31,676 nucleotides of DNA from Crocinitomicaceae bacterium (GCA_020848015.1 JADLBA010000062.1:1-31676); one strand, 5' to 3'. Positions 5,058-23,602 are shown, counted from the first letter of the stretch. Notes: generated by a model from the sequence alone, not told the origin. Numbers and translations are program-made.

Positions 5058-5876
5058 ATGCAAACAAAATCAGCTCCTATCAAACGCAGCGAAGTGCTTG
5101 TGAGGTTCTCGCAGGAACATCATTTCGGATTGTTGTTGTGTTGGAAAATCAGACAAGGCATTAATAACAATATTGCGCCTCAAAGAATTGCCGCGTTCAT
5201 TTCATTTGTTTTCGAAAACGAATTAAAGCGACATTTCAGGGAAGAGGAGTCATTATTGTTTATAAAATTGGATGAAACCAACCCATTGCGTGATAGGGCT
5301 TTGCAGGAGCATCAAATCATCAGTAATTTGATGGCGACTATTAGTTCGGGGGATCAGAGTTATGATGTGTTGAATGAATTTGCCAACACCTTGGAAAAGC
5401 ACATTCGTTTTGAAGAAAGAACCTTGTTCAATGAATTGCAGAGCCAATGGGGCGATGCAGAGTTGACTGAACCGATTGTAAAGCATAAGACGAAGCCTGC
5501 TGATATAGGTGAAACATGGCACGATAAATTTTGGTTATCTAATAATCATCTTTCAGAAAATAAAATAACTCCCGTTGCTATGGAATGGGAAGAAGGAGCG
5601 GTAAAAGGATTTTCAGCAAAGAAATTGCTGATGCGTGAAAATGGCGCAATGAAGTTGGTTAAGGTCGCTCCTTCTTCCTCCTATCCCGAACACATTCATC
5701 CTGATAAAACTGAGTTTGCTTATGTAGTGAAAGGCACTCCTCGCTTTGTGGTTGGTAAGGATGAATTTTTAGCGATCCCGGATGAATTTTACATTTTTCC
5801 CACAAATACAAAACACGCGATTATTAATACAACGGATAGCGATTGCGTATTGCTGATTGGCAGTATTAAAGATTAA
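5058..5876 (+). CDS. Hemerythrin/HHE-domain protein fused to a C-terminal cupin domain
   Basis: SQEHHFGLLLCWKIRQG, HFREEE, EHQII, HIRFEER (hemerythrin-like). YPEHIHPDKTEFAYVVKG and PTNTKHAIIN (cupin motifs 1 and 2). Confidence 0.82.
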   Translation: MQTKSAPIKRSEVLVRFSQEHHFGLLLCWKIRQGINNNIAPQRIAAFISFVFENELKRHFREEESLLFIKLDETNPLRDRALQEHQIISNLMATISSGDQSYDVLNEFANTLEKHIRFEERTLFNELQSQWGDAELTEPIVKHKTKPADIGETWHDKFWLSNNHLSENKITPVAMEWEEGAVKGFSAKKLLMRENGAMKLVKVAPSSSYPEHIHPDKTEFAYVVKGTPRFVVGKDEFLAIPDEFYIFPTNTKHAIINTTDSDCVLLIGSIKD

Positions 5877-5886
5877 ATGCTTCAAT

Positions 5887-6696
5887 ATGGATGTAATAAA
5901 TGCCAATACAAAAATTGCTTCTATTCTGAAACAGCATCCCGGTGCCTTAGAGGCCATCATAAGTATTTCGCCCAAATTCAACAAACTTCGGAATCCGCTG
6001 ATGCGCAAGTTGATCGCTTCGAGAGCCTCCATATTCATGGCGAGTAAAATGGGCGGATGTACGGTAGATGATTTTTTTAAAAAACTTCAACCGCTCGGAT
6101 TCTCTATTGATAATACAGCCGCTGTTGAAGAAAATGCTGAGATGAAAGAATTGCCGGGCTTTATGAGAAATATTTCTGAAGGTGCTATTGTTGAACTGGA
6201 TGTACGCAGTGTGTTGGATGGCGGAGAGGACCCTTTGAAACTAATTCTTGAAAAAACCAAGCAGCTAAAGACTCAACAAATTCTTAAGCTCGTAAATAGT
6301 TTTGAACCCATTCCGCTTATTCAGTTATTGGAGAAGCAAGGTTATGAAACTTTTTCAGAAACCATTAACGATAATCTGGTTTATACTTATTTTTTCAAAA
6401 GTGAAAATTCTGCATCTCCGGAGCCACAATTGAATAACACTGCCGGCGATTGGGAGAACGTGCTTGCACAATTTGAGGGAAAAACAAAAGATGTAGATGT
6501 ACGTGCTCTTGAGATGCCTTTGCCAATGCTTACTATTTTAGATGAGATGGATAAGTTACCGGCGGGGCATTGCCTTTTCGTATATCACAAACGTATTCCT
6601 GTTTTTCTCCTGCCCGAATTGAAGGAAAGAAAATTTGAATATCGCATTAACGAAATCACAGACGGCGAAGTTCATCTTTTAATTTTCCGCCACTGA
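5887..6696 (+). CDS. DUF1858 + tandem DUF2249 (TusA/SirA-like) domain protein
   Basis: N-terminal TKIASILKQHPGALEAII...LRNP (DUF1858-like). Two LDVR/VDVR...P repeats with NSFEPIPL and HKRIPVFL motifs. Start set at MDVINAN (5887). Confidence 0.75.
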   Translation: MDVINANTKIASILKQHPGALEAIISISPKFNKLRNPLMRKLIASRASIFMASKMGGCTVDDFFKKLQPLGFSIDNTAAVEENAEMKELPGFMRNISEGAIVELDVRSVLDGGEDPLKLILEKTKQLKTQQILKLVNSFEPIPLIQLLEKQGYETFSETINDNLVYTYFFKSENSASPEPQLNNTAGDWENVLAQFEGKTKDVDVRALEMPLPMLTILDEMDKLPAGHCLFVYHKRIPVFLLPELKERKFEYRINEITDGEVHLLIFRH

Positions 6697-8932: not shown

Positions 8933-11900
8933 ATGTACTACCTCCGCGTGAGTAAAGTTGCTTCTGCAATTGCTGTCGCATTTCTATTGCTATCTGGTCT
9001 GACTTCCTGTAAGGAGAAAAATGGATCAATCAATCCTGCTTTTGCGCGCTATATTTCTGCCTTTACCAGTGGTACCATTTCCGCCGCCGGAAATATTCGC
9101 ATCAGGCTTACAGATGTATTTGCAGAAAACATTGTGCTGAACGAGCCGATCAAAGAAAAATGGATTGATTTCTCTCCCAATATTGAAGGAGACCTTATCT
9201 GGATTGATACGCAGACTCTTGAATTCCGGCCAAAAGAATGGCTGAAAAGAGGTGAAACCTACCATGCAGAATTTGAGCTTGGCAAGTTGATAAAACTGCC
9301 TTCAAACCTCCATGACTTTGAGTTCAATTTTACCGTGCTCAGCCAGAATATGGATTGTGAAATTCGTCAGATCAAGCCATATAGAACTGATGATCTGCGT
9401 TGGATGAGCATGAGTGGTATTGTACGTCTGATAGACGTTGCGGATATATCAGAACTCGAAAAAACTCTTTCAGCGGCGGGGAGCGGAAAAACCCTTCCTA
9501 TTACATGGACTCATTCAGAAGATAAGCACTTGCATTACTTTACGGTTGACAGTGTGGAAAGAAAAATTTCTCCCTGCATTGTGGACTTCAATTGGAACGG
9601 TAAAGCCATCGGAGCAGAGCAATCTGGCAGTAGAACCATTGAAATACCGGCTCTGGATGATTTTAAAGTATTTTTCCACGCCGTCAATCAGCACCCGGAA
9701 CAATACATTATTCTGCAATTTTCCGATCCTTTAGATCCATCTCAAAATTTGTCGGGCTTGGTGGATCTTGTGAACGACGGTGCCGAAAGGCTTACGATCG
9801 AAAGTAATGAGGTAAAACTCTACCCGTCTTATCGCTTTGCCGGAAATACTGAAATACACATCCATCAAGGAGTAAAAAATATCTCGGGAGTTGCCTCCAA
9901 ACAGGAGCAGGTTTTTTCAGTGTCTTTCGAAGATCTTAAACCCGACGTGGAAATTCCAGATAAGGATAGAGTCATTTTACCTTCTACCAATGGACTGGTG
10001 TTTCCTTTTCGCGCAGTTAATCTGTCAGCAGTGGACGTAGAAATTATCCGCATCTTTGAGAACAATATTCCACAATTTCTCCAGGTAAATGCCCTGGACG
10101 GCAATCGTGAAATGAGCCGTGTAGGGAGAAAAATTCTCAAAAAAACAGTTCAGTTAAATTCCGATGGAAAAACCAACCTTGCTACCTGGAATACCTTTTA
10201 CCTGAATCTTGATGAGATAATAAAAACCGAACCCGGCGCAGTATATCGTGTGGCAATTTCATTTATTAAACGCTACAGTCTTTACCATTGTGAAGGAGAC
10301 GACGATGACAAATACGACGGAAATATGCAACCTCTTAGCGGCAATTGGAACGAAAGCGAAGAGGAGGAATACAGCGACTGGAATTACTATGAAGATTATT
10401 ACTACGAGGATTATTATTATGATGAATATGGCGACCGTGGAAACCCTTGCAGTGAAGAGTACTATTCAGGAAGAGCAAAATCAAAGAATATCCTCGCTTC
10501 CGACATAGGAATTATTGCAAAAAATGGGGTGGATAATACCTGCCATTTTTTTGTGACTGATATCAGAACTTCGAAGCCTATCAGTGGTGCGGAGCTGGAT
10601 GTACTCAACTTCCAAAACCAGAGTATAGGTAAAATAAAAACAGACAGTGAAGGAAAAGCTGTTATTCCCATTTCTGGCGGAAAGCCGTATTTGCTTGTTG
10701 CTAAAAAGGATAAGCAGCGAGGATACCTTAAACTGGATGACTCCCATTCATTGTCCACAAGCACCTTTGATGTAGGAGGATCGGCAACTGAAAGTGGAAT
10801 GAAAGGGTTCATATATGGTGAGCGCGGTGTATGGCGCCCTGGAGATACGCTGTTCCTCTCCTTCATTCTCGAAGACGAGCGTCAACTTTTACCTGAAGGC
10901 CATCCGGTCAATTTCGAGTTGGTAAATCCCCGCGGGCAAGTGATCCGGAAAATGGTGAAGAGTAAAGGGGAAAATGGATTTTACCGGTTCACCACTCCAA
11001 CAGATAGTGATGCTGAAACGGGGAATTATGCCGCTAATATCAGAGTGGGTGGAGCAACATTCTCAAAATCGCTAAAGATCGAAACCATTAAACCCAACCG
11101 CCTCAAACTCTCTCTCAATTTCGGAACTGAAAAAATTACTTCGCTAAACAAAGATGTGAGGGGCACACTTACTGCTAAGTGGCTGCATGGTGCCTCTGCC
11201 CGCAACCTGAAAGCAATGGTCAGCAGCTCTTATTCTCAATCCTCCACCTCTTTCAACCAGTATTCTGACTATGTATTTGACGACCCTGTCAGAAGTTTTT
11301 CAGGTGAAGAAAAGATCATTTTTGAAGGATATACTAACAACGAAGGAGTAGCAAATATCTCATTTGACACCGATCTGTCGAATCGTGCACCTGGTATGGT
11401 GAACGCAAACTTTAGTGTAAAGGTATTTGAAGAGGGGGGTGATTTTTCTGTGGATCGTTTTACAATTCCTTATGCCCCTTACAGTCACTTTGCGGGGATC
11501 AGGCTTCCTAAAGGCGATAAAATGCGGAATATGCTTCTGACTGATACCGATCAGAAGGTGGATGTAATCACTGTGGATGCCAATGGCAAAGCCGTCGCAA
11601 GAAAAAATATTCAATGGAAGTTGTACAAAGTAGCATGGAGATGGTGGTGGGAAAAAAGCAGCAACGATCTTGCTAATTATACGGGAAGCGAAAGCACTAC
11701 ACCGGTTGCTGAGGGATCTATCACTACTAATTCAGACGGGCGCGGTAGTTTTTCATTTCAAGTTCATTACCCTGACTGGGGGCGGTACCTCGTGCGCGTA
11801 GAAGATCCCGGGAGTGGTCATGCTACCGGGCAAACCGTCTATTTTGATTGGCCGGGCTGGGCAGGAAGAGCACAACGCGAAAACCCAGGTGGTGCCAGTA

Positions 11901-14539
11901 TGCTGGTGTTTTCTACTAACAAGGAAAAATATACTGTAGGAGAAGAGTGCGAAATTTCCTTTCCGAGCAGTGGGATAGGACGTGCGTTAGTATCCATTGA
12001 AAATGGAACCCGTATCCTTGAAGCACATTGGGTGGAAGCAAAGAAAGAACAGACAGTATTTAAGTTCAAAACAACTGCTGAAATGGCACCGAATGCCTTT
12101 ATCAACGTGACACTCATTCAGCCGCACGACCAGACTGCGAACGACCTGCCGATAAGGCTGTATGGTATCATGCCGCTTTTAGTAGAAAATCCCGGCTCAC
12201 ACATAGACCCTATAATCAGTGTGAAGGAGGAACTTGAACCGGGAAAAGAATTTGAAGTGAAGGTGAGCGAAAAATCCGGGAAGGCAATGACATACACTCT
12301 GGCGATTGTTGAGGAAGGTCTCCTCGATCTTACCCGCTATAAAACCCCCGACCCATGGAATTATTTTTATGCGAGAGAAGCGTTAGGGATCAACACATTC
12401 GATCTGTATGACCAGGTAATTGGTGCGTTCGGAAGCAAGCTCGAAAGGCTGCTCAGCATTGGTGGTTCAGATGAAGCAGTTGGAAAAGGTAAAAGCAAAA
12501 TCAATCGCTTCAAACCGGTAGTGATGTATGCAGGGCCATTTACAATGGATGCAAAGCAAAGTAAAACGCACAAGTTTGTGATGCCCGATTATGTGGGATC
12601 TGTCCGTGTTATGGTTGTTGCGGGAAAAGATCCTGCGTATGGAAATGCAGAAAAAACAGTACTCGTGAAAAAACCATTGATGGTGCTTGCCTCTCTGCCT
12701 CGTGTGCTGGGGCCTGGAGAGGAAGTGAAATTGCCGGTCACCGTTTTTGCAATGGAGAAAAGTATAAAGAATGTAACTGGAAAAGTGGAGGTCAACGATT
12801 TTTTTACCCTGAATGGAAACGCAACACAGGAAATTAAATTCAATGAACCAGGAGAAGATGTCATCAATTTCGCAATGAAGGTGAAAGAGAAGACGGGAAA
12901 GGGTAAGGTGAAAGTAACAGTGAGCAGTGGTAATTTTAAAAGTACTTACGAGGTAGAAATGGAGGTGCGAAGTCCAAATCCCTCCCTTACTACCGTAAAA
13001 TCAGCAGTAATTGAACCCGGTCAGCAATGGTCTGCCGGTTATGATGCAGTAGGAATGGCGGGCACTAACAGTACTGTACTCGAAGTGAGTTCTATTCCTC
13101 CGGTTGATTTTGGAAGAAGATTGCAGTACTTGTTGGAGTACCCTCACGGATGCATCGAACAAATCACTTCGGGCGCTTTTCCCCAGCTCTATTTGTCTGA
13201 CGTGATGGAGATAGATGAAAAACTCAGCCGGCGGGCAGACGACAACGTAAAAGCAGCGATCAGCCAATTCACTAAATTCCAGACTTCCGGTGGCGGACTT
13301 AGTTACTGGCCGGGCGAAGCTCAAGTGAGCGACTGGGGTACTACTTATGCAGGACATTTTATGATAGAAGCAGAACAACATGGCTTCACACTTCCTGCCG
13401 GCTGGAAGAATGCATGGCTGGCGTATCAGAAGAGAACTGCACAAAACTGGAGGCAAGCTGACTCAAAAAGCGGAAACTATTATTGGAGAGAAAGCGACCT
13501 CGACCAAGCATATCGCCTTTATTCACTAGCGCTGGCGGCGCAGCCTGAAACGGGCGCAATGAACAGGTTGCGCGAATTGCCCGGACTTAGCATTGCAGCA
13601 AAGTGGCGCCTCGCCGCTGCTTATGCTTTGGCCGGTAATAAAGAAACTGCTGAGAAGATCGTTCAGGGACTTTCCTCTTCTGTTGCCCCATACCGATCGC
13701 TTGGTTATACATACGGATCTGGCGAAAGAGATGAGGCGATGATTGTAGAAACGATGGTGTTGCTCGGAAAGAAAACAGAAGCTGCTGACCTTGTAAAAAT
13801 TCTTTCAAATAAATTGTCATCAGAACGCTGGTACAGCACACAAACAACAGCGTATTCATTGATTGCCATTTCCAAGTTTGCCGGCAACAATGCCGGAAAA
13901 GATATCCGCTATGTCTGTACACTAAACGGAAAATCATCACCTGAATTTGTCTCTCAAAAAGCCATGACTAATGAAAGTCTGAATGATAAACTGAAAGGAA
14001 ATATCATTGAAGTAAAAAATACCTCAAAGTCTCTGCTCTACGCAAGGATTATTACTAAAGGAGTTCCATTGAATGGAAATGAAACGACTGCTGGAAACGG
14101 ATTGAGAATGTCGGTCAGTTATTTCGATATGAAAAACCGCCCGATAGATATTGGCCATATTGATCAAGGTACCGACTTCATTGCAGAAGTGAGCGTTACC
14201 CACCCGGGGATTGACGAACCATACAGTGAGTTGGCTCTCACGCAGATATTCCCCAGCGGCTGGGAAATTATTAATTCGAGGATGGATGCAAGCGCAATTG
14301 TGAGTAATGCTGATCAGCCTGAGTTCCTTGATATTCGCGATGACCGGGTGTACACTTATTTTGACTTGTACCGGAATCAGACAAAAAAATTCCGTGTGAA
14401 ACTCAATGCAACATATATAGGAAGGTTTTATTTGCCTGCTGTAAACTGCGAGGCAATGTATGATGCAGGTATCAATGCGCGTACAAAAGGTCAATGGGTA
14501 GAAGTTGTCCGTTCAGGAAGTGTTGCTATGAAGCAATGA
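8933..14539 (+). CDS. Bacterial alpha-2-macroglobulin (YfhM-like) lipoprotein
   Basis: Lipobox LTS-C26. MG-domain motifs (RGVWRPGDT, IETIKPNRLK). Intact thioester motif YPHGCIEQ (13151-13162). C-terminal DIRDDRV...AVNCEAMYD. Lies next to pbpC. Confidence 0.95.
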   Translation: MYYLRVSKVASAIAVAFLLLSGLTSCKEKNGSINPAFARYISAFTSGTISAAGNIRIRLTDVFAENIVLNEPIKEKWIDFSPNIEGDLIWIDTQTLEFRPKEWLKRGETYHAEFELGKLIKLPSNLHDFEFNFTVLSQNMDCEIRQIKPYRTDDLRWMSMSGIVRLIDVADISELEKTLSAAGSGKTLPITWTHSEDKHLHYFTVDSVERKISPCIVDFNWNGKAIGAEQSGSRTIEIPALDDFKVFFHAVNQHPEQYIILQFSDPLDPSQNLSGLVDLVNDGAERLTIESNEVKLYPSYRFAGNTEIHIHQGVKNISGVASKQEQVFSVSFEDLKPDVEIPDKDRVILPSTNGLVFPFRAVNLSAVDVEIIRIFENNIPQFLQVNALDGNREMSRVGRKILKKTVQLNSDGKTNLATWNTFYLNLDEIIKTEPGAVYRVAISFIKRYSLYHCEGDDDDKYDGNMQPLSGNWNESEEEEYSDWNYYEDYYYEDYYYDEYGDRGNPCSEEYYSGRAKSKNILASDIGIIAKNGVDNTCHFFVTDIRTSKPISGAELDVLNFQNQSIGKIKTDSEGKAVIPISGGKPYLLVAKKDKQRGYLKLDDSHSLSTSTFDVGGSATESGMKGFIYGERGVWRPGDTLFLSFILEDERQLLPEGHPVNFELVNPRGQVIRKMVKSKGENGFYRFTTPTDSDAETGNYAANIRVGGATFSKSLKIETIKPNRLKLSLNFGTEKITSLNKDVRGTLTAKWLHGASARNLKAMVSSSYSQSSTSFNQYSDYVFDDPVRSFSGEEKIIFEGYTNNEGVANISFDTDLSNRAPGMVNANFSVKVFEEGGDFSVDRFTIPYAPYSHFAGIRLPKGDKMRNMLLTDTDQKVDVITVDANGKAVARKNIQWKLYKVAWRWWWEKSSNDLANYTGSESTTPVAEGSITTNSDGRGSFSFQVHYPDWGRYLVRVEDPGSGHATGQTVYFDWPGWAGRAQRENPGGASMLVFSTNKEKYTVGEECEISFPSSGIGRALVSIENGTRILEAHWVEAKKEQTVFKFKTTAEMAPNAFINVTLIQPHDQTANDLPIRLYGIMPLLVENPGSHIDPIISVKEELEPGKEFEVKVSEKSGKAMTYTLAIVEEGLLDLTRYKTPDPWNYFYAREALGINTFDLYDQVIGAFGSKLERLLSIGGSDEAVGKGKSKINRFKPVVMYAGPFTMDAKQSKTHKFVMPDYVGSVRVMVVAGKDPAYGNAEKTVLVKKPLMVLASLPRVLGPGEEVKLPVTVFAMEKSIKNVTGKVEVNDFFTLNGNATQEIKFNEPGEDVINFAMKVKEKTGKGKVKVTVSSGNFKSTYEVEMEVRSPNPSLTTVKSAVIEPGQQWSAGYDAVGMAGTNSTVLEVSSIPPVDFGRRLQYLLEYPHGCIEQITSGAFPQLYLSDVMEIDEKLSRRADDNVKAAISQFTKFQTSGGGLSYWPGEAQVSDWGTTYAGHFMIEAEQHGFTLPAGWKNAWLAYQKRTAQNWRQADSKSGNYYWRESDLDQAYRLYSLALAAQPETGAMNRLRELPGLSIAAKWRLAAAYALAGNKETAEKIVQGLSSSVAPYRSLGYTYGSGERDEAMIVETMVLLGKKTEAADLVKILSNKLSSERWYSTQTTAYSLIAISKFAGNNAGKDIRYVCTLNGKSSPEFVSQKAMTNESLNDKLKGNIIEVKNTSKSLLYARIITKGVPLNGNETTAGNGLRMSVSYFDMKNRPIDIGHIDQGTDFIAEVSVTHPGIDEPYSELALTQIFPSGWEIINSRMDASAIVSNADQPEFLDIRDDRVYTYFDLYRNQTKKFRVKLNATYIGRFYLPAVNCEAMYDAGINARTKGQWVEVVRSGSVAMKQ

Positions 14540-14699
14540 GTATCCGGATGATGAAGAATGAAACCCTGATACCTGTTTCTGATAAGCCGGAGCTCCATGT
14601 AGTATCCTTTTTTTTGAGGATTATTATTTTCTGTTTAAGTAAGCGGGCAGAACGGGATCATTCGCAATCAAGAGAATAATTCTTCAATAAAAAGGTGGA

Positions 14700-17033
14700 A
14701 TGAAAAAGAAGTGGAACCTTGTAATTTGCGCTTGTTCGCTTGGGACATTCCTGTTTTTTTTCTTTTGTCTTCCATACGATTTTTTTAATCCAACGACAAG
14801 TTCGGTATTGTACTCAGGTAATGGAGAGTTGATGAGCGCCATCGTTGCTGACGACGGACAATGGCGTTTCCCCGGCAGAAATGAAGTGCCTGAAAAATTT
14901 AAAACTTCATTACTTGCTTATGAAGACGAACACTTCTTCGATCATAATGGTGTTTATCTCCCTCGTATTATCGGTGCAGCATACCAGAACATTGTTGCGC
15001 AAAAGATCGTCAGTGGCGCTAGTACCATCTCCATGCAGGTCATTCGACTCAGTAGAAATAATCCTCAGCGTTCATTCGGAGAAAAGATAATGGAAATGAT
15101 CCGCGCAATGCGGTTAGAGTGGCGCTATTCAAAAAAGGAGATACTCTCCTTGTATGCATCAAATGCACCCTACGGAGGAAATGTTGTCGGAATTGATGCC
15201 GCCGCATGGCGTTACTTCGGCAGGATTCCCGAAGAGCTGTCTTGGGCTGAATCAGCAATGCTCGCCGTACTCCCCAATGCCCCTTCGCTGATTTTCCCCG
15301 GAAAGAATCAAGAAAAACTGCTGGTGAAAAGAAACCGGTTACTTGAAAAACTTTATCGCAAAGGGATTATTGACGAACATATTCTTGAGTTGTCCTGTCT
15401 CGAACCTCTCCCACAAAAACCTTTCCCGTTACCGCAAGAGGCGAATCACCTGCTGATGACCGCCTGCAAAAAATACGGAAAGGGAAGTCGCTTTTCAACT
15501 TCAATAGATGGAGCTATACAGCGACAGGCAAAGAATATTCTGCAACAGCATATCAGCCGCCTGGAGACGAACGGAGTGCACAATGCAGCAATTCTCATAC
15601 TCGATGTAAAAACGGGAAACGTACTTGCATATATTGGAAACAGCGATGATCCTGGAAGCCGGTACAGCAATAAGGTGGATATTATTCAGGCCCCGCGAAG
15701 CACTGGAAGTATTCTAAAACCTTTTTTGTATGCTGCCATGCTGAAAGAAGGACTGATTCTCCCTAACGCCCTTGTGCCGGATATACCTGTACAGTACGAA
15801 GGATTTTCACCGCAGAACTATTCTGAAACTTTTGACGGGGCGGTTCCTGCAAGCAATGCGTTATCACGGTCGTTGAATGTGCCATCGGTCATCATGCTCA
15901 AAGAATATGGTTATCCCCGGTTTTATCACCTGCTGAAAAAAATGCACTTTTCTCATCTGAAGCGCCCCGCTGATTATTATGGGTTGTCTATTATTTTAGG
16001 AGGTGCCGAAGCTAATCTCTGGGATATAACACAGGCATACGCTTCTATGAGCAGGCTGCTGACTAACTACAATGCGACCGGACACTATTTCGAGGTTGCC
16101 TTTGAGCAAGGTCGGCTCGTACCTTCCGAAGAGAAGCGCGACAGCAGTAAAACTGCTTATCCTCTCTTAGATGCCGGCTCGGTTTGGTGTACCTATAAAG
16201 CACTGCTCGAAGTGAACAGACCGGACTCTGAACTAGGATGGGAAGCCTATAATTCGAGCAAACCCATTGCCTGGAAAACAGGAACCAGTTTTGGAAATCG
16301 CGATGCATGGGCTGTAGGCACAACGCCTGAATATGTTGTGGGAGTATGGGTGGGAAATGCGAATGGACAGGGAAGACCTAACCTTACAGGAGTGCAGGCT
16401 GCCGCGCCTTTGTTGTTTGATGTGTTCAATCTCCTTACTTTCCGCTCATGGTTTCGTATTCCATTTGATGAGTTGGAAAAAATTCCTGTGTGCCACGAAT
16501 CGGGAATGCGAGTGGGGCCTCATTGTTCTGCCCCCGACTCTATCTATGTGCCCCGACAGGGGCTGAATTCGGCGGTTTGCTCTTTTCACCGGATCATTCA
16601 TACCAATGCAGCAGGCTACCGCGTAACAAAAGATTGCTCTCCGGATGATATGAAAGAATCGGCCTGGTTTGCTCTTCCTCCTGTGCAAGAATACTATTAT
16701 TCAAAGGTTCACCCAGCCTATAAACCATTGCCATTATATGCCGCAGGATGCAACCCGAATGATCGTTCGCCCATTGGGTTGATCTATCCAAGGTCATCGT
16801 CAAAAATTTTTATCCCCCGCAGCCTCGGTGGTGAGTATGAAATGACTGTTCTGAAGGCGACACACAGTAACCCGAAAGCTATTCTTTACTGGCATCTCGG
16901 CAGCGAATACTTAGGCGAAACTTCCGTTATTCACGATATGCCGGTGCGACCTTTGCCGGGTATATACAAGCTGACCATCGTTGACCAGGACGGACATTTG
17001 TTAGAAAGGAAAATCGAGTTCATTGAAAAGTAG
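14700..17033 (+). CDS. pbpC: Penicillin-binding protein 1C (transglycosylase/transpeptidase)
   Basis: Transglycosylase EDEHFFDHNG and GASTISMQ. Transpeptidase SILK, SLN, KTG motifs. C-terminal BiPBP_C-like domain. Canonical partner of A2M. Confidence 0.95.
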   Translation: MKKKWNLVICACSLGTFLFFFFCLPYDFFNPTTSSVLYSGNGELMSAIVADDGQWRFPGRNEVPEKFKTSLLAYEDEHFFDHNGVYLPRIIGAAYQNIVAQKIVSGASTISMQVIRLSRNNPQRSFGEKIMEMIRAMRLEWRYSKKEILSLYASNAPYGGNVVGIDAAAWRYFGRIPEELSWAESAMLAVLPNAPSLIFPGKNQEKLLVKRNRLLEKLYRKGIIDEHILELSCLEPLPQKPFPLPQEANHLLMTACKKYGKGSRFSTSIDGAIQRQAKNILQQHISRLETNGVHNAAILILDVKTGNVLAYIGNSDDPGSRYSNKVDIIQAPRSTGSILKPFLYAAMLKEGLILPNALVPDIPVQYEGFSPQNYSETFDGAVPASNALSRSLNVPSVIMLKEYGYPRFYHLLKKMHFSHLKRPADYYGLSIILGGAEANLWDITQAYASMSRLLTNYNATGHYFEVAFEQGRLVPSEEKRDSSKTAYPLLDAGSVWCTYKALLEVNRPDSELGWEAYNSSKPIAWKTGTSFGNRDAWAVGTTPEYVVGVWVGNANGQGRPNLTGVQAAAPLLFDVFNLLTFRSWFRIPFDELEKIPVCHESGMRVGPHCSAPDSIYVPRQGLNSAVCSFHRIIHTNAAGYRVTKDCSPDDMKESAWFALPPVQEYYYSKVHPAYKPLPLYAAGCNPNDRSPIGLIYPRSSSKIFIPRSLGGEYEMTVLKATHSNPKAILYWHLGSEYLGETSVIHDMPVRPLPGIYKLTIVDQDGHLLERKIEFIEK

Positions 17034-17265
17034 AAGCCTTTTCATTTTTTGTAGTGTCATGAAAACTGTGACAGTGGATATTACACTATAATGAATCCGA
17101 AAGACTCTAATTTTTATAACAAAACGAAGGCAAGAAATGCTGTGTCTCTGAAGGGATTGAATGGAATGTCAGAAGTTGAACCCTACTTGACTATCTATTT
17201 TTATTTTTTTGGATGATTCATGGAAATGGCCTTACTTAGTAGTCTAACTATTAATATCTGATACC

Positions 17266-18015
17266 ATGTACCAAAAAACAACACTTTTCCATTTCATTTT
17301 TCTTTTATCTATTTACTCTTTCGCACAATCTGGCGTAGCGATCAATTTATCCGGCACTGATCCGGCAGCCTCTGCAATGCTCGATGTTAGCAGCACCGAT
17401 CAGGGGATGCTCATTCCGAGAATGACCGCTACCCAGAAGGCGGCCATTGCAGCACCGGTACAGGGGTTGATGATCTTCCAAACAGACGGGGACTCGGGGT
17501 TCTGGTATTACGACGGCCTATCCTGGACAAAAGCCGGTGATAATCTCGGATCACATACTGCTGCCTCCGACCTCGATATGTCGGGAAACAAAGTGACCAA
17601 TCTTGCCGCCTGCACCTCCAATGCCGATGCTGCCAATAAGGAATACGTGGACAATGCAGTGAGCGCTGGTGGCGGTGGGCCGGTGGTTCCTGATACTACC
17701 TATACTCTTTCAGGATCAAAATTGCTGACCGTTGCTTATGGAGGCACTACTTATACTGGTCCCTCAGACAAAATGTGGGCGATTGAAAGCGCGGTTTATT
17801 CTTCTTATCAATATCCTGTGCGAATTAGCTCGATCAATGGACAGGCATACAGTTATGGCTACATAGGCAATTTCTCATACTCAGGTAATGCCATCTATTG
17901 CATTGCCACACCTTTTGTCCTGCCTCCAGGCACTACTGTTATTTTCGATGTGGGAAGCGGCGCCTCACACAAAGGTCTTGTCAGCATAAGAGAGTATAAG
18001 ATTGCGGTGCAGTAA
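17266..18015 (+). CDS. Secreted hypothetical protein: Bacteroidota LDV...G-L-IPRM N-module, fibre-neck-like motif and C-terminal head domain
   Basis: Signal peptide ending FA-Q. AMLDVSSTDQGMLIPRMT...GLMIFQTD...FWYYDG..W module. KVTNLA...DAANKEYVD. No T9SS CTD. Confidence 0.75.
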   Translation: MYQKTTLFHFIFLLSIYSFAQSGVAINLSGTDPAASAMLDVSSTDQGMLIPRMTATQKAAIAAPVQGLMIFQTDGDSGFWYYDGLSWTKAGDNLGSHTAASDLDMSGNKVTNLAACTSNADAANKEYVDNAVSAGGGGPVVPDTTYTLSGSKLLTVAYGGTTYTGPSDKMWAIESAVYSSYQYPVRISSINGQAYSYGYIGNFSYSGNAIYCIATPFVLPPGTTVIFDVGSGASHKGLVSIREYKIAVQ

Positions 18016-18040
18016 AAATCAACGCAGGATATAGCAAGAT

Positions 18041-18067
18041 GACCCGGATTGCCTCCGGGTCTTTTTT
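18041..18067 (+). terminator. Intrinsic terminator between convergent 17266 gene and dnaG
   Basis: GACCCGGA-TTGCC-TCCGGGTC 8-bp stem followed by T6. Confidence 0.85.
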
Positions 18068-18068
18068 A

Positions 18069-20015
18069 TCAATAAAGTACCGCTGAACCAAAGTATTTTG
18101 ACAGCTCCATTTTTGCCTTGTTCAGAATTATTTTTTCATGCAGCAATGCTTCTATTTTTTCTTCCTCCGCTTCGTTTTTCATAGCATTATCTATCTCACT
18201 AAGAAGCTGTAAAACCTTCCGCAATTTTAACCGGAATACGCAGTCTTTGGAGGCCTTCCTTAACAACATCTCTTCAATCTCCGGATATACTCCGTGCTTT
18301 ACCGTCCAGTTATCGCTCAAATGATACCGGTTTGCCAAAATGTTGCTCGTTTCTGTGGCAATTCCTTCATCGCTGTGGAGCGTAAATTTTTTTGTCTCAG
18401 GTATCTCTTCGCGTCCTACAAATTCAACATACTCTTTCAGGATGCGCGAGTAGATAGGATCCTGCAATTCGAGGTCATCTTGTTCAAGGCTGCCAATCAG
18501 GTACTCTGCAACAGAGATAGCGTGAAGTTCAGTCTTTCCTTCTTCTATTTGTACAGGTATATCAATGTTTTTTTCACCGTATGACAGCAGAATCCGAATA
18601 AAATCTTTTTCCTGATGATAAAATGAACCCCCCGATTCTGGCTCAGCAACAGGGATTCCGTCAGCGGGAATTTCATCGAGCAACGGAAGTTCTTCTCTTG
18701 TCATTTTTTTCAACCCCGCCGCCAGAGATTTGTTCAGCTCTGCTATCAGCACATTTTCCTGCATATTCAGCAGATGGCTGCACTCCTGTACATACACTGA
18801 GCGCTGAATACCATCAGGTATCAGTGCAATGCTATCAACAATACCGCGGATGAGCGCTGCACGCTTTACAGGATCATTGCCCGCCTCTTCGATCAGCAGC
18901 GATGTTTTGAAACGGATAAAATCCTTTGCATACTGATCAATAAATTCCTGTATCTCAGCGCTGCTGTGTTTTTTTGCAAAACTGTCAGGATCGTCTCCAT
19001 CGGGAAAAAGCACTACGCGCACATTCAATCCTTCTTTCAGGATCATATCAATACCGCGAAAACTGGCTTTGATACCCGCAGAATCACCGTCGTACAGAAT
19101 GGTAACATTCAGTGTATAGCGACGTATCTGCCGTATCTGTCCTTCAGTAAGACTGGTACCGCTCGAAGCCACCACGTTTTCTATTCCAGCCTGATGGAGT
19201 GAAATAACATCGGTGTAGCCCTCGACCAAAAAACAATTGTTGTTTTTAACAATGCTGTTTTTTGCAAGGTGCAACCCGAACAGCACATTGCTTTTATTGT
19301 ATAGCTCGCTTTCAGGGCTGTTGAAGTATTTGGCAATATCTTTTTCTGCTTTTAGCGTGCGTCCTGCAAAGGCGATAATTTTCCCCGAAACATTGTGTAT
19401 CGGAAACATGACACGTCCGCGAAAAAAATCGTAAGGCACACCATCGCGCAAGCGGGTGAGACCTGTCTTTTCAAGGTATTTCAGGTTATATCCGGCTTCA
19501 AGAGCTGCCTGCGTCATCGCATCCCAGTTATCAGGGCAATAGCCAAGCTGGAATTTTGTGATGATGTCGTCGCGAAACCCACGCTCGATAAAATAACTCA
19601 GCCCAATAGCACGTCCGTCTTCTGTCTCATGTAATTGTTGCTGAAAATAGCGATGGGCAAAATCAGAAACCAGCGACAAATTTTCACGCTCACTCCTTTC
19701 CTGCATCTGCTCTTCGGTGGGCTTGTCTTCGTCTATTTCTATATTGTATTTTGCAGCAAGCCATCGCAGCGCTTCAGGATACGACATCTTTTCGTGCTCC
19801 ATAAGGAAACTCACGACATTGCCACCTTTCCCACTGCTAAAATCTTTGTAGATACCCTTTGATGGAATCACAAAAAAACTTGGAGTCTTTTCATTACTCC
19901 ATGGGGAAAGCCCTTTATAGGAAGATCCGCTTTTTTTCAGGTGCACAAATTCACCGATTATATCCTCAATAATGGCGGCATCAAATATGCTCGAAATGGT
20001 GTCTTGTGATATCAC
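18069..20015 (-). CDS. dnaG: DNA primase
   Basis: GTG start. EKTPSF, FRGRVMFPI, KYFNSPES, TOPRIM VEGYTDV and YDGDSAG, DPDS motifs. Confidence 0.96.
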   Translation of the reverse strand: MISQDTISSIFDAAIIEDIIGEFVHLKKSGSSYKGLSPWSNEKTPSFFVIPSKGIYKDFSSGKGGNVVSFLMEHEKMSYPEALRWLAAKYNIEIDEDKPTEEQMQERSERENLSLVSDFAHRYFQQQLHETEDGRAIGLSYFIERGFRDDIITKFQLGYCPDNWDAMTQAALEAGYNLKYLEKTGLTRLRDGVPYDFFRGRVMFPIHNVSGKIIAFAGRTLKAEKDIAKYFNSPESELYNKSNVLFGLHLAKNSIVKNNNCFLVEGYTDVISLHQAGIENVVASSGTSLTEGQIRQIRRYTLNVTILYDGDSAGIKASFRGIDMILKEGLNVRVVLFPDGDDPDSFAKKHSSAEIQEFIDQYAKDFIRFKTSLLIEEAGNDPVKRAALIRGIVDSIALIPDGIQRSVYVQECSHLLNMQENVLIAELNKSLAAGLKKMTREELPLLDEIPADGIPVAEPESGGSFYHQEKDFIRILLSYGEKNIDIPVQIEEGKTELHAISVAEYLIGSLEQDDLELQDPIYSRILKEYVEFVGREEIPETKKFTLHSDEGIATETSNILANRYHLSDNWTVKHGVYPEIEEMLLRKASKDCVFRLKLRKVLQLLSEIDNAMKNEAEEEKIEALLHEKIILNKAKMELSKYFGSAVLY

Positions 20016-20034
20016 GGAAAAAAGATGGGAACGA

Positions 20035-20042
20035 CAAATATA
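20035..20042 (-). promoter_or_regulatory. -7 promoter box (TATATTTG) for dnaG
   Basis: Exact TAnnTTTG on the minus strand, 19 nt upstream of the GTG. Confidence 0.65.
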
Positions 20043-20121
20043 ACACCCTGTAATAGATGAAATTCATGGCTTTTCATGGTTTCAATCATTATTCCAAATT
20101 CGTTGAACCGCTCGCTGCCTT

Positions 20122-20916
20122 TCAGGCCGAAGCACTGTTGCCCGCCGCCTCTTCATAGCGCTTTGTAAGAGCCACAAAATCGAGGGAGCTCAATTGTTCG
20201 GGACGCTTTTCAAACAGGGGTTCCGAAAGATCCACCCGCCCTGTATGAAATCCCTTCAGCGAGTTTCGCATGGTTTTTCTCCGTTGGTTGAAGGCAGTCT
20301 TAACCAACTGACGAAATAATTTTTCATCACAGCCCAGTGACGTGTCTGTTTTGCGCACCAACCGGATAACACCACTCTTTATCTTGGGAGGAGGAATAAA
20401 TTCTTTTTCATCCACTGTAAAAAGATATTCCACATGATAATAGGCCTGTATGAAGATAGAAAGGATCCCGTAGTCGCGATTACCCGGACCACTCGCAATG
20501 CGCACCGCTACTTCTTTCTGAAACATACCTACTACTTCGGGCACACGGTCTTTATAATCGAGTATGCGGAAAAGTATTTGCGAAGAAATATTATATGGGA
20601 AATTGCCAATGATAGCCACCTGACCGCTGAACAGTTTATCTAACGGAAGTTGTAAAAAATCTGTCTCTATAATTCTCCCTTTAAGTTCCGGAAAATGAAA
20701 ATTCAGATAGGCGATTGATTCATGGTCTATTTCCGACACAAATAATTTTTTTCCCGCGAGATGAAGCAGATGGCGGGTGAGGGCACCGGTTCCTGCACCA
20801 ATCTCCAGAACCGTTTCGTATTGATCATCGCAGATCAGGCTTTGCGCAATTTCAGTACAGATACCGTCATTGCTCAGAAAATGCTGGCCAAGATGTTTCT
20901 TAGGTTTTACATACAC
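20122..20916 (-). CDS. rsmA: 16S rRNA m6,2A1518/1519 dimethyltransferase
   Basis: KPKKHLGQHFL, EIGAGTGALT, GNFPYNISS, MFQKEVA, FNQRRKT. Likely GTG start at 20916 (VYVKPKK). Confidence 0.96.
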   Translation of the reverse strand: MYVKPKKHLGQHFLSNDGICTEIAQSLICDDQYETVLEIGAGTGALTRHLLHLAGKKLFVSEIDHESIAYLNFHFPELKGRIIETDFLQLPLDKLFSGQVAIIGNFPYNISSQILFRILDYKDRVPEVVGMFQKEVAVRIASGPGNRDYGILSIFIQAYYHVEYLFTVDEKEFIPPPKIKSGVIRLVRKTDTSLGCDEKLFRQLVKTAFNQRRKTMRNSLKGFHTGRVDLSEPLFEKRPEQLSSLDFVALTKRYEEAAGNSASA

Positions 20917-21089
20917 AGAGCAAATCAACGGTAAATTTTTATTATGTAGCAGAAATGACCGATGAAACTTTGCCATACGGGTTCATTGATTGGGGCTGCC
21001 TGTTTTAAAGAAAAATTGTTCGTGTGAAAAGGATGCAGTAAATTAGACACCTTGTTGTCACACTTTATGGCCGACAAAATAATTAACCA

Positions 21090-21578
21090 ATGAAAATAAA
21101 TCTTTTTCTCTCAATTCTTTTAACCAGTGCAACAGTTGTTGGCTATGCTCAATCCGGCGGAACGCTTAAATTCAAGCAGGCCAAGTTGATTACCAATTCG
21201 ATAGAAACAGTTCCTGCCAACCATGTATGGAAAATCACCGCCGTATATGGCACGGTAGAGGGATGTCATCTAATTGGTGCCTGTTACACGGCTCTTTCAC
21301 CACTATCTTACGCTTTTGCGAAATACACAGGTTTTCAGGTCGAGGGGACAGAAATCCTTTCGAGTAGAATTTATGTCAAAGGAAATTTTTTCTCTAACAA
21401 TACCTGCACTAACGATCCCCGCTCATGGACTACTGGGAACCCGCCACTGTGCTCCACTATGGCCACTGATCTCTCCGCTAATCCAAATATTCTACCCTTC
21501 TGGCTCGGTGAGGGAAAAACACTCAAAGCAAGTGCCGCTGGTATTTTTCTCTCAGTTATCGAGTTTGAAATTGAATAA
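21090..21578 (+). CDS. Secreted hypothetical protein (stand-alone head-type domain, 4 Cys)
   Basis: Signal peptide ending YA-Q. TVPANHVWKI and PFWLGEGKTL...SVIEF motifs shared with the C-terminus of the 17266 protein. Confidence 0.72.
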   Translation: MKINLFLSILLTSATVVGYAQSGGTLKFKQAKLITNSIETVPANHVWKITAVYGTVEGCHLIGACYTALSPLSYAFAKYTGFQVEGTEILSSRIYVKGNFFSNNTCTNDPRSWTTGNPPLCSTMATDLSANPNILPFWLGEGKTLKASAAGIFLSVIEFEIE

Positions 21579-21635
21579 TCGAAATAATTATCATAAATGA
21601 AATCCATAACATTATATACCTGCTAATTCTATTAT

Positions 21636-23471
21636 ATGAAAAATATCTTACTTTTTATTACCATACTCACAGCTTCGTTGTTAAGTTATTCGCAGGTAGG
21701 GATAAATGCCAACGGGTCTTCTCCCAACTCATCTGCGGGTCTTGATGTTGACTTTACCAACAGGGGCATACTCATGCCGAGAATGACTACCGTGCAGCGC
21801 GATGCAATTCAGAATCCCGCTCTTTCCCTGTTGATATACAACACCACATCCAATTGTTATGAATCATACAACGGCATTTTGTGGCAATCTGTTTTTTGTC
21901 TTTGTACCGCTGCTCCCGATACTCCCGGTATAATAATCGGCAGCGCTACTTCCTGCGAAGCGGCTACGAATATTTCCTATTCGATCGTTGGTGTAAGCGG
22001 GGCTACTTCCTATACGTGGTATGTTCCTGCAGGTGCCAGTATTTCTGCAGGGCAGGGAGGAACATCGATCCTTGTCAACTTTGGTAATACATCAGGCAAT
22101 ATACAAGTCGTTGCAAACAATAGTTGTGGTATCAGCAGCCCCAGTAGTTTATCGGTGACTTTGAGCGGTGCCCCCAATACACCAGGTTCTATAACAGGAA
22201 ACACTACTCCCTGTACAGGTGCGTTGGGTGTTCCTTATTCAGTAACCCCTGTTCCAGGAGCTACCTCATATTCTTGGTCTGTGCCTTCTGGTGCAACCAT
22301 TACCTCAGGTCAGGGAACCTCCTCTATTGCGGTTGATTTCGGAAGCATCTCGGGCAGTGTTTCTGTCACTGCCGAAAACAGTTGCGGAACCAGCCTATCC
22401 AGCAATGCATCTGTTACATTGGGCACTATTCCGTCCATACCAGGAGCCATTTCAGGTAATGCTACTCCATGCGCCAATTCGTCGGGAAATGTTTACACGA
22501 TCAGCCCTGTGGCGGGCGCAACTTTCTATACTTGGACAGTGCCAGCAGGTGCTACAGTGACTTCTCCTCAGGGTAATACAAGTGCTACGGTAACTTTTGG
22601 TTCCGTCTCAGGATTGGTGCAGGTAACGGCAGACAATACCTGCGGATCGAGTAATGCAAGCGGTTTGTCTGTGACACTTGGTGGCGGTGTTACGGGAACA
22701 CAAACGTTCAGCTACACGGGAAGCATCACATCGTTCACAGTTCCGTCGTGTGTATCTTCTGTTACTATAGAAGCCTGGGGTGCTGAAGGGGGAAGAGGAA
22801 AGGAATCTGGTACCAGCTCATATTCCAGTGGTACCCCAGGAAAAGGTGCGCGAATGAAGGGAACAGTTACTGTTACCCCGGGTGAAACGCTGAAAGTATT
22901 GGTAGGTCAGAAAGGAGGAGAAAAGTTAGATCAGCTACAGCTTGGTGGGGGCGGTGGCGGCGGGTCTTTCGTGACCCGCAATGATAATACTCCGTTAGTA
23001 ATTGCCGGCGGAGGAGGGGGTTCAGGGCGTTATGACGGGAATAATGGTACTGACGGAACTACGAACACTTCCGGAACAAATGGAAATGGCCTTGGTGGAT
23101 CCGGTGGATCCGGCGGAAGTGGTGGCACAATGCACAGTTGTAGTTATTCAGGCGGTGGTGGTGCAGGTCTCACGGGTGCCGGACAAAATCACGGTGGAAC
23201 CAATGCACAGCCATTCATCAGTGGCGGCGCTGGAGCATCAGCGAGTACTGAATGGATCAACGGTAATGTCGGCGGATTTGGTGGTGGTGCCGGTACAGGG
23301 CCTCATGGTGGCGGTGGCGGCGGTGGATATTCGGGCGGAGGCGGCGGCGGCGACACCAACTGTGGCGGCAATGGCGGTGGCGGCGGCGGTGGTTCCTATA
23401 ATGGCGGAACCAACCAGTCCAACTCTTCCGGCGTTCAATCTGGAAATGGGCAAGTAATCATTAATTGGTGA
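21636..23471 (+). CDS. Secreted protein: N-module, 3 PKD-like repeats and C-terminal ALK/LTK-like glycine-rich domain
   Basis: Signal peptide ending YS-Q. GLDVDFTNRGILMPRMT module. Three 86-aa repeats. FTVP...IEAWGAEGG...VGQKGG...GGGGGGS..IAGGGGG...GGGGYSGGGGG...GNGQVIINW. Confidence 0.82.
   Translation: MKNILLFITILTASLLSYSQVGINANGSSPNSSAGLDVDFTNRGILMPRMTTVQRDAIQNPALSLLIYNTTSNCYESYNGILWQSVFCLCTAAPDTPGIIIGSATSCEAATNISYSIVGVSGATSYTWYVPAGASISAGQGGTSILVNFGNTSGNIQVVANNSCGISSPSSLSVTLSGAPNTPGSITGNTTPCTGALGVPYSVTPVPGATSYSWSVPSGATITSGQGTSSIAVDFGSISGSVSVTAENSCGTSLSSNASVTLGTIPSIPGAISGNATPCANSSGNVYTISPVAGATFYTWTVPAGATVTSPQGNTSATVTFGSVSGLVQVTADNTCGSSNASGLSVTLGGGVTGTQTFSYTGSITSFTVPSCVSSVTIEAWGAEGGRGKESGTSSYSSGTPGKGARMKGTVTVTPGETLKVLVGQKGGEKLDQLQLGGGGGGGSFVTRNDNTPLVIAGGGGGSGRYDGNNGTDGTTNTSGTNGNGLGGSGGSGGSGGTMHSCSYSGGGGAGLTGAGQNHGGTNAQPFISGGAGASASTEWINGNVGGFGGGAGTGPHGGGGGGGYSGGGGGGDTNCGGNGGGGGGGSYNGGTNQSNSSGVQSGNGQVIINW
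21912..22685 (+). repeat. Three tandem 258-bp (86-aa) PKD-like domain repeats
   Basis: Repeats start at 21912, 22170 and 22428. Each has P-G-x-I-x-G...C...GAT-x-Y-x-W-x-VP-x-GA...QG...V-x-FG...N-x-CG. Confidence 0.88.
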
Positions 23472-23491
23472 AATTTTTTTCAGCGGCCTAA

Positions 23492-23530
23492 AGGAACCTT
23501 ACTCAATCAGTGTAAGGTTCCTGTTTTTTT
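23492..23530 (+). terminator. Intrinsic terminator downstream of the glycine-rich protein gene (convergent with queG)
   Basis: AGGAACCTTAC-N9-GTAAGGTTCCT 11-bp stem followed by G and T7. Confidence 0.85.
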
Positions 23531-23602
23531 CGATAATATTATATCAGTGAAGATTATAGATTCATGTGAATGACCAGTGCGGTCAATAATATTTTGATTT
23601 AA

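Follow-up and report, generated by a model that had tools for sequence, protein, structure and literature searches.

Three lineage-expanded families of secreted, phage-tail-fibre-like proteins in an activated-sludge Crocinitomicaceae bacterium

Collagen triple helices and phage tail fibres require a trimerisation nucleus, and jelly-roll heads such as those of C1q, TNF and BclA form trimers in which the adjacent termini face the stalk and the variable loops are distal. Mtd is the tropism determinant of the Bordetella phage BPP-1, and the gp37 fibre of T2/S16-type phages is paired with a gp38 adhesin that carries a polyglycine domain. The Bacillus L-ENA operon l-bclA-ena3A encodes a collagen-like protein of the C1q type together with a small jelly-roll subunit, and a terminal peptide of the collagen protein serves to dock it into the jelly-roll assembly (PMC11362473). 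The trimeric collagen-like adhesin Lcl of Legionella is exported by the type II secretion system (T2SS; PMC11162425). Here, we analysed a stretch of 31,676 nucleotides from Crocinitomicaceae bacterium (GCA_020848015.1 JADLBA010000062.1:1–31676; called the window here), in which three genes on the plus strand encode the secreted proteins A (17266–18015, 249 aa), B (21090–21578, 162 aa) and C (21636–23471, 611 aa). An earlier reading of this DNA from sequence (the original prediction) had described the three as a module set in which A fuses what B and C carry apart. With a probability of roughly 0.55, we consider A, B and C to be members of three lineage-expanded, recombining, Sec-exported families of phage-tail-fibre-like parts that would build homotrimeric fibres and diversified jelly-roll heads.

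A and C begin with the same module of about 70 residues (called the N-module here). The two copies align at 41% identity over 81 aa (BLASTP E 1e-15), and a pair of 17-mers in the DNA, at 17410 and 21771, is identical at 16 of 17 positions, where no such pair is expected by chance; the common module and the exact DNA match had both been reported correctly by the original prediction. In A, the N-module comprises residues 20–92 (17323–17541, +) and corresponds to PF26696, PTL_trimer, which Pfam describes as “C1q/Phage tail like trimerisation region”. Precomputed Pfam assignments list it for A, for the orthologues of A and for 110+ homologues. The copy in C (residues 19–84; 21690–21887, +) was assigned to the PTL_trimer type by its homology to A in BLASTP and jackhmmer, not by direct scoring against PF26696. 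Elsewhere, PF26696 is partnered with C1q, collagen, phage Collar, endosialidase chaperone (Peptidase_S74), BclA_C, Lcl_C, FISUMP and GEVED domains, and it is also present in viral clusters. We found no mention of PF26696 in the literature. In the model of A, residues 48–90 superpose on the N-terminus of Mtd (PDB ID: 1yu0; Z 5.5, rmsd 1.9 Å over 41 residues) and also match tailspike necks and the collagen XV trimerisation domain (Z 4.9). The Pfam name, the fold likeness (Z 4.9–5.5) and the adjoining collagen repeats make it plausible that the N-module trimerises A and C. Both would then be homotrimers, because collagen and tail fibres need a trimerisation nucleus and jelly-roll heads themselves trimerise.

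The N-module of A is followed by a phage-tail-fibre-like neck motif and a Gly linker (residues 93–138; 17542–17679, +). The neck carries a block, N-x-DAANKEYVDN, that is invariant across the orthologues of A, and the PHROGs tail-fibre families phrog_2710 and phrog_11338 match residues 99–133 at E 4e-5 to 9e-5. C instead continues with three PKD_6 repeats (PF19408; 21921–22670, +; E 3.5e-74, 245.6 bits against a gathering cut-off of 25) and ends in a glycine-rich tip resembling the glycine-rich domain (GRD) of ALK and LTK (residues 347–611; 22674–23471, +). By jackhmmer, this tip belongs to a family of 42 open reading frames (ORFs) in the genome. C alone has no match to PF12810 (ALK_LTK_GRD) at E ≤ 0.1, that is, it lies below Pfam reporting. 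PF12810 is matched by 8 of 42 N-module proteins (best 1.3e-36), PF21722 is also matched by paralogues, and the profile of the GRD family matches the LTK ectodomain (7nx0_C) at 3.9e-9. As a side observation, the PKD_6/Ig-like repeats of N-module proteins in this genome give a very strong profile match (30 stretches) to GhpA (9flp), the grappling-hook protein of the predatory Aureispira; the likeness is at the level of domains only.

The C-terminal head of A comprises residues 139–249 and the stop codon (17680–18015, +), and B (+ strand; signal peptide at residues 1–20) is a secreted protein that stands alone. By pairwise BLAST, the similarity of the two is non-significant (E 0.37), though profile methods join them. 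Started from A 136–249, jackhmmer on the genome ORFs converges on exactly the same 48 B-family ORFs as when started from B, and it reaches B at 2e-25. Alignment of seven A-head orthologues to 33 B-family members by hhalign gave a probability of 98.2% and E 3.5e-14 over 98 columns, and it pairs the motifs that the original prediction had named. That prediction had called B a stand-alone version of A's head and had proposed profile alignment as the check, and the significant alignment bears it out. The AlphaFold2 models of both are eight-stranded β-sandwiches (pLDDT 82 for B and mostly 82–94 for the head of A). They retrieve a common list of generic jelly-rolls, including nucleoplasmin cores, cupins and the receptor-binding domain of the PM2 spike P1, with best Z values of 6.0–6.8. 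Judged by jackhmmer, hhalign and the common fold matches, A's head is a divergent, predicted jelly-roll member of B's family.

The B family has no sequence match in Pfam (33 members searched), NCBIfam, PHROG or PDB. Fold searches with the B model (PDB Foldseek, a wide structural alignment, AFDB clusters and BFVD) returned solely generic jelly-roll or uncharacterised matches. A word-based homologue search for B yields two relatives; when the family profile is run exhaustively against 1.84 billion representatives, 1,728 of them match at E ≤ 1e-3 and 735 at ≤ 1e-10, and the median length among the 150 best matches is 144 aa. We regard B as the type of a new and widespread domain family with a scaffold-plus-variable-insert design; the family numbers approximately 1,700 cluster representatives and lacks a Pfam model. 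The signal peptide is followed directly by conserved strands (TLQFNQVxL ... TVPxGKVWK), such that the mature protein begins with the first β-strand. A hypervariable and often Cys-rich middle comes next, and conserved strands (LPxWLPAGTTL ... SVIEFNxxP) occupy the very C-terminus. In the B of the window, the N-terminal strands read LKFKQAKLI and VPANHVWKI, the insert is Cys-rich, and the C-terminal strands read LPFWLGEGKTL and LSVIEFEIE. In arrays of B genes, the conserved motifs are encoded by varied synonymous codons; the constraint therefore acts on the protein and is not a by-product of recent gene conversion. Whole extra domains can sit in the variable middle, which may thus serve as a display scaffold for binding specificities. 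The B domain is also covalently fused to fibres, in A and in the proteins P0011, P0188 and P0266. Among P0221, P0263, P0269, P0266 and P0188, we also noted B scaffolds with an extra domain in the variable region, a LamG-like plus Ig protein with a B head at its end, and a long fibre protein that ends in two tandem B domains.

The assembly of this activated-sludge organism is 2.83 Mb in size, fragmented and 87% complete. By jackhmmer, about 60 of its ORFs have an N-module, 48 belong to the B family and 42 have a GRD. Together these make up about 121 family genes among approximately 2,450 crude genes, that is, about 5%. The module set that had been seen in three proteins is therefore a pattern of the whole genome, and environmental Bacteroidota such as this one can spend about 5% of their genes on a module set without any studied member. 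In its order (121 genomes, including this one), the N-module is present in 50 of the 120 others at 1–9 copies, whereas this genome has 48 or more. The B family is present in 5 of the 121 and in none of the 14 other genomes of the same family. The genome is thus an outlier expansion within its order. Its N-modules are combined with PKD_6, Ig-like, Lcl_C, FISUMP, DUF1554, endosialidase chaperone and endostatin-like domains. The architecture of C, N-module plus PKD plus GRD, occurs in 17 copies and the stand-alone B in approximately 36, and the GRD is also found with other N-termini.

Twelve further proteins, each of about 315 aa, carry a B core before a GRD. In all 12, the first segment corresponds to positions ~104–161 of the B profile and the second to positions ~19–77. 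By this order of profile segments, the B+GRD fusions are circular permutations of the B core that lack the variable middle. Such a permutation implies that the two B termini are neighbours in the fold. Among the 12 (loci L071–L080), examples are those on contig 16 at 583–1545 and 1689–2633. One B+GRD fusion, on contig 279 at 14503–15834, also has a neck motif and a tail-fibre-like domain.

B and fibre genes are linked in the genome beyond chance. A stand-alone B has an N-module or GRD gene as its immediate neighbour in 9 of 36 cases, against 2.1 ± 1.5 in 2,000 label shuffles (maximum 8; 0 of 2,000 reached 9), and B lies directly upstream of an N-module gene on four contigs, namely that of the window, C72, C75 and C161. 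The linkage at family level recurs in other species. We scanned one genome per species for the pattern and obtained 74 loci in 50 genomes, mostly metagenome-assembled genomes of the Flavobacteriales/Crocinitomicaceae type from freshwater and sludge. An N-module lies 77–310 nt from a co-oriented B domain in 30 of the 74 loci and 29 of the 50 genomes, with B downstream in 26 of the 30. The upstream gene typically encodes a collagen triple-helix protein (PF01391, sometimes DUF7151) with the N-module at its C-terminal end. Three further genomes of the window's order carry both B and the N-module, and all three show the same arrangement of stalk and then B.

Behind such a gene, the B genes can form tandem arrays of 19 or more separate, translationally coupled genes, each with its own start codon and signal peptide and many with ATGA-type overlaps of start and stop. 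Examples behind a collagen-like or a minimal PTL_trimer gene are L156:1743–9280 and L134:2366–10433 (among loci L123–L196). In L123–L127, a gene for an N-module plus GRD protein is embedded inside the B array. In L155 (1165–3204), a second collagen protein with a C-terminal endosialidase chaperone (Peptidase_S74) lies just 5′ of the collagen–PTL_trimer–tail gene, and a large PKD protein follows the B array.

The upstream stalk proteins end in a Gly/Ser linker and a near-invariant tail, (N/P)TL(I/V)YT(T/A/V)DGF-COOH. In the fetched loci, we found 30 ORFs with this tail; the N-module is present in 26 of them, and a B gene comes immediately after 28. The tail gene of the window's own genome is located on contig 29 at 5406–5912 (L036:964–1467). 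It encodes a secreted protein of 168 aa that ends in ...GGGGGDPTLIYTTNGF (...DPTLIYTTNGF), and it stands 28 nt before a B paralogue (5940–6401; L054). In this protein, a neck-like motif is combined with a domain that resembles phage tail proteins (phrog_4900, E 4e-12). A and P0011 consist of a fibre part, a Gly linker and a head, and the first strand of the head (DTTYTLSG) resembles the tail. A and P0011 are the covalent counterparts of the stalk-plus-head loci, and the tail may dock onto B proteins. Prediction of a complex between three copies of the PTL_trimer-plus-tail segment of L134 and the first B of its array gave a score of 0.00, which is evidence neither way. The conserved operon grammar of a stalk gene, an invariant C-terminal tail and an array of head genes predicts binders with interchangeable specificities, either on the surface or secreted.

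Taken as fibre parts, the three proteins would work as follows. The PTL_trimer N-module would nucleate homotrimers of A and C. A would be a trimeriser with a tail-fibre neck and a jelly-roll head, and C a trimeriser with three PKD stalk domains and a polyglycine (GRD) tip. B would be a free-standing head whose conserved and adjacent end strands form a common face, either an oligomer or a docking interface, and whose variable insert sets the specificity. Head and trimeriser genes would constitute one genetic system, fused in A, adjacent in the window and arranged as a stalk plus an array in relatives. The arrays would encode a repertoire of specificities for an adhesin- or lectin-like role outside the cell, with heads released as free small binders or mounted on stalks. 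That free heads are mounted non-covalently on stalks is possible but doubtful. A specific form of this idea, which we put forward only tentatively, is a “split C1q”. In it, the tail-ended trimeric stalk (collagen- or tail-fibre-like, with PTL_trimer and Gly linker) would be a hub onto which dozens of different B heads, each secreted separately, could dock via their conserved terminal strands, perhaps by strand addition. If true, one stalk could display a combinatorial repertoire of specificities from a gene array, with A as the fused form and the permuted B+GRD proteins as a second fused form.

The signal peptides of A, B and C are of the signal peptidase I (SPI) type, with the junctions FA/QS, YA/QS and YS/QV, respectively (the slash marks the cleavage site). 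That of A comprises residues 1–20 (17266–17325, +) and is cleaved before Gln21, with the AQ kept in the alignment of A orthologues. From its translation, that of C comprises residues 1–19 (21636–21692, +) and is cleaved before Gln20. The original prediction was right in assigning Sec signal peptides; its statement that these end in Gln needs correction, as the Gln lies immediately behind the cleavage site. This agrees with the Q-rule of Bacteroidetes, by which the mature protein begins with a Gln that becomes cyclised (PMC5837995, PMC10653852). No Cys follows the signal peptides of A, B and C, so they are not lipoproteins of the signal peptidase II (SPII) type. Models of the type IX secretion system (T9SS) C-terminal domain (CTD; TIGR04183 for type A and TIGR04131 for type B) have no match in 42 N-module proteins, including A and C. 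Approximately 74 TIGR04183 matches were found genome-wide, and none overlaps an ORF of the N-module, B or GRD families. The absence of both a T9SS CTD and a lipobox from A, B and C is as originally predicted, and that of the CTD extends to the families. A large class of exported proteins without T9SS signal or lipidation in a T9SS-bearing organism bears on alternative export routes in Bacteroidota. We considered the B domain, which ends in ...VIEFEIE, as a novel T9SS CTD and rejected this, since a stand-alone B would be a sorting signal with no cargo attached, and in the GRD fusions the B core comes first. Separately, genes for T9SS CTD cargo often adjoin B or N-module genes in this genome (e.g., C300:10218–10424, C118:8572–8778, C134:8381–8605 and C310:4945–5148).

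Several observations weigh against the reading of A, B and C as parts of surface fibres. We infer trimers, surface exposure and a ligand-binding role from sequences and predicted models. The comparison of the heads with C1q/TNF is an analogy, with kinship not established: neither A nor B matches C1q in Pfam (PF00386), and the TNF-family protein EDA-A1 reaches Z 4.3. The own genome, in its fragmented and 87%-complete assembly, has no collagen–PTL_trimer–tail hub gene, and its sole tail-bearing gene is the one on contig 29. Twenty-seven of the 36 stand-alone B genes have no adjoining fibre gene, and the closest homologue of B (69% identity) is a singleton on a 194-kb contig, flanked by a Crp-type regulator and dinB. 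Finally, no T2SS (secretin or GspE-type ATPase) was found in the 87%-complete assembly, and without a T9SS CTD, lipobox or T2SS the default location of these proteins would be the periplasm.

This last point is the core of a reading in which A, B and C are all periplasmic and form no surface fibres. SPI signal peptides as the only export signals, no CTD in a genome with about 74 CTD cargo proteins, no lipobox and no secretin or T2SS ATPase all speak for it. The partner domains of the families (PKD, Ig-like, collagen, Lcl_C, FISUMP, endosialidase chaperone and C1q), however, are typical of extracellular proteins, and an export system may be unassembled in an 87%-complete genome; we hold a purely periplasmic location to be unlikely. 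The original prediction had proposed oligomeric surface fibres with a common base and exchangeable tips. Oligomeric fibres are plausible, given PTL_trimer, the fold likeness and the collagen partners, but the N-module is no fixed base, since it is N-terminal here and C-terminal in the collagen proteins.

The original prediction had further proposed that B binds C, capping its tip or acting as an assembly chaperone, and that B and C together stand for what A encodes in one gene. B ends 57 nt before C begins, in the same orientation, and the AT-rich spacer (21579–21635, +) has no terminator-like hairpin. The other three contigs with B directly upstream of an N-module gene, the 12 paralogues in which B cores are fused to GRD tips and the linkage of N-module and B in other genomes point the same way. 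It had expected the B–C adjacency to be conserved, however, and this holds only for the families, which are linked in 29 of 50 other genomes, and not for the specific pair: the 69% homologue and the 27 stand-alone B genes noted above have no C-like neighbour, and only nine of 36 have an N-module or GRD gene beside them. One fibre gene followed by up to 19 different B genes, as in relatives, is a poor fit to a 1:1 chaperone, and B has its own signal peptide and a predicted autonomous fold. We thus consider a dedicated pairing of B with C improbable. The many singletons and the own start and signal peptide of every B gene speak for another reading, as does the ratio of 48 B genes to one tail-bearing partner gene in the own genome. 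In it, the B proteins would be secreted in soluble form and act on their own as lectin- or bacteriocin-like binders or toxins; they would lie near fibre genes only via co-regulation or shared duplication hot spots and would at no point attach to the fibres. This is a real possibility, if still an outside one. It leaves unexplained the strong conservation, across genera and at the protein level, of the B end strands, the 28 of 30 tail genes that directly precede B, and the fusions of B to fibres in A, P0011, P0188 and P0266.

We rejected two further candidates, prophage or tailocin remnants with true tail-fibre genes and silent cassettes for recombinational antigenic variation of one expressed fibre, and consider either very improbable. 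The neck of A and the contig-29 protein do match PHROG tail-fibre/tail families and the N-module occurs in viral clusters, but every member has a Sec signal peptide, for which a virion protein has no use. Moreover, the copies number more than 100 and are dispersed among housekeeping genes (in the window pbpC, dnaG, rsmA and queG), with no adjacent phage structural genes. Conserved ends around a variable middle recall pilin cassettes; here, every cassette begins with a start codon and signal peptide of its own, and the varied synonymous codons make recent gene conversion unlikely. The reading of A, B and C as Sec-exported, tail-fibre-like parts remains the one that we prefer.

In the window, A is separated from B by two convergent housekeeping genes, dnaG (18069–20015, −) and rsmA (20122–20976, −). 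A strong terminator-like hairpin (18041–18061, +) lies 3′ of A and faces the convergent dnaG; its 8-bp stem includes 6 GC pairs and leads into a T run. queG is located downstream of the A/B/C region. Directly 5′ of A (8933–17033) are genes for an alpha-2-macroglobulin (1868 aa; MG, bait and TED domains) and then penicillin-binding protein 1C, which is the classic A2M–PbpC pair. Orthologues of A occupy unrelated neighbourhoods. DNA near-identical to 17000–23600 of the window is present in sludge, wastewater and bioreactor metagenomes of many studies. Contigs from RNA libraries match at ≥99% identity, A at 17273–17477 and B at 21102–21344 in one activated-sludge study and C at 22678–23022 in another. 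As these are contigs and DNA carry-over is possible, they are weakly compatible with expression of A, B and C; gaps within A, B and C and the missing cover over dnaG and rsmA carry no meaning.

Compared with the C1q/BclA-type proteins (collagen stalk, trimerisation region and jelly-roll head, including bacterial PF26696 plus C1q), the system is alike in that the N-module family precedes C1q and BclA_C heads in other Bacteroidota. The stalks of its relatives are also collagen triple helices, and the head is a predicted jelly-roll with adjacent termini. It differs in that the heads of A and B are not C1q/TNF by sequence and are generic by fold, and the heads are mostly separate arrayed genes and not part of the stalk chain. 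With phage tail fibres with exchangeable tips (Mtd, gp37/gp38), it shares the likeness to the Mtd N-terminus (1yu0, Z 5.5), the PHROG neck matches, a predicted design of modular trimers with variable distal binders and a polyglycine tip. Unlike those fibres, the genes here are chromosomal, the proteins have Sec signal peptides and there is no virion context. The variable part is an insert in a predicted jelly-roll and not a C-type lectin fold, and no diversity-generating retroelement is in view.

A linked collagen-like stalk and small jelly-roll genes are also the arrangement of l-bclA-ena3A. That operon belongs to a different phylum and a spore context, its Ena is a DUF3992 protein with Cys-bearing N-terminal connectors, and it has no multi-gene arrays. 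Ena (DUF3992) had no Pfam match among 33 B members and no sequence or top-ranked fold match to B. Five N-module paralogues in this genome carry the Lcl C-terminal domain PF07603, and three match NF046116; A, B and C themselves lack Lcl_C, and the T2SS that exports Lcl was not found here. The family of C's tip matches both the ALK/LTK GRD model (PF12810) and the LTK structure (7nx0), but it is bacterial, terminates a PKD stalk and in many cases is joined to a permuted B core, and C alone falls below Pfam reporting. We found no description of a system of stalk plus B array in the literature on bacterial C1q/collagen systems and bacterial GRDs. The system is distinguished from all of these by its new head family, by heads that are encoded separately in arrays, by the invariant tail of its stalks and by the permuted B core in its GRD fusions.

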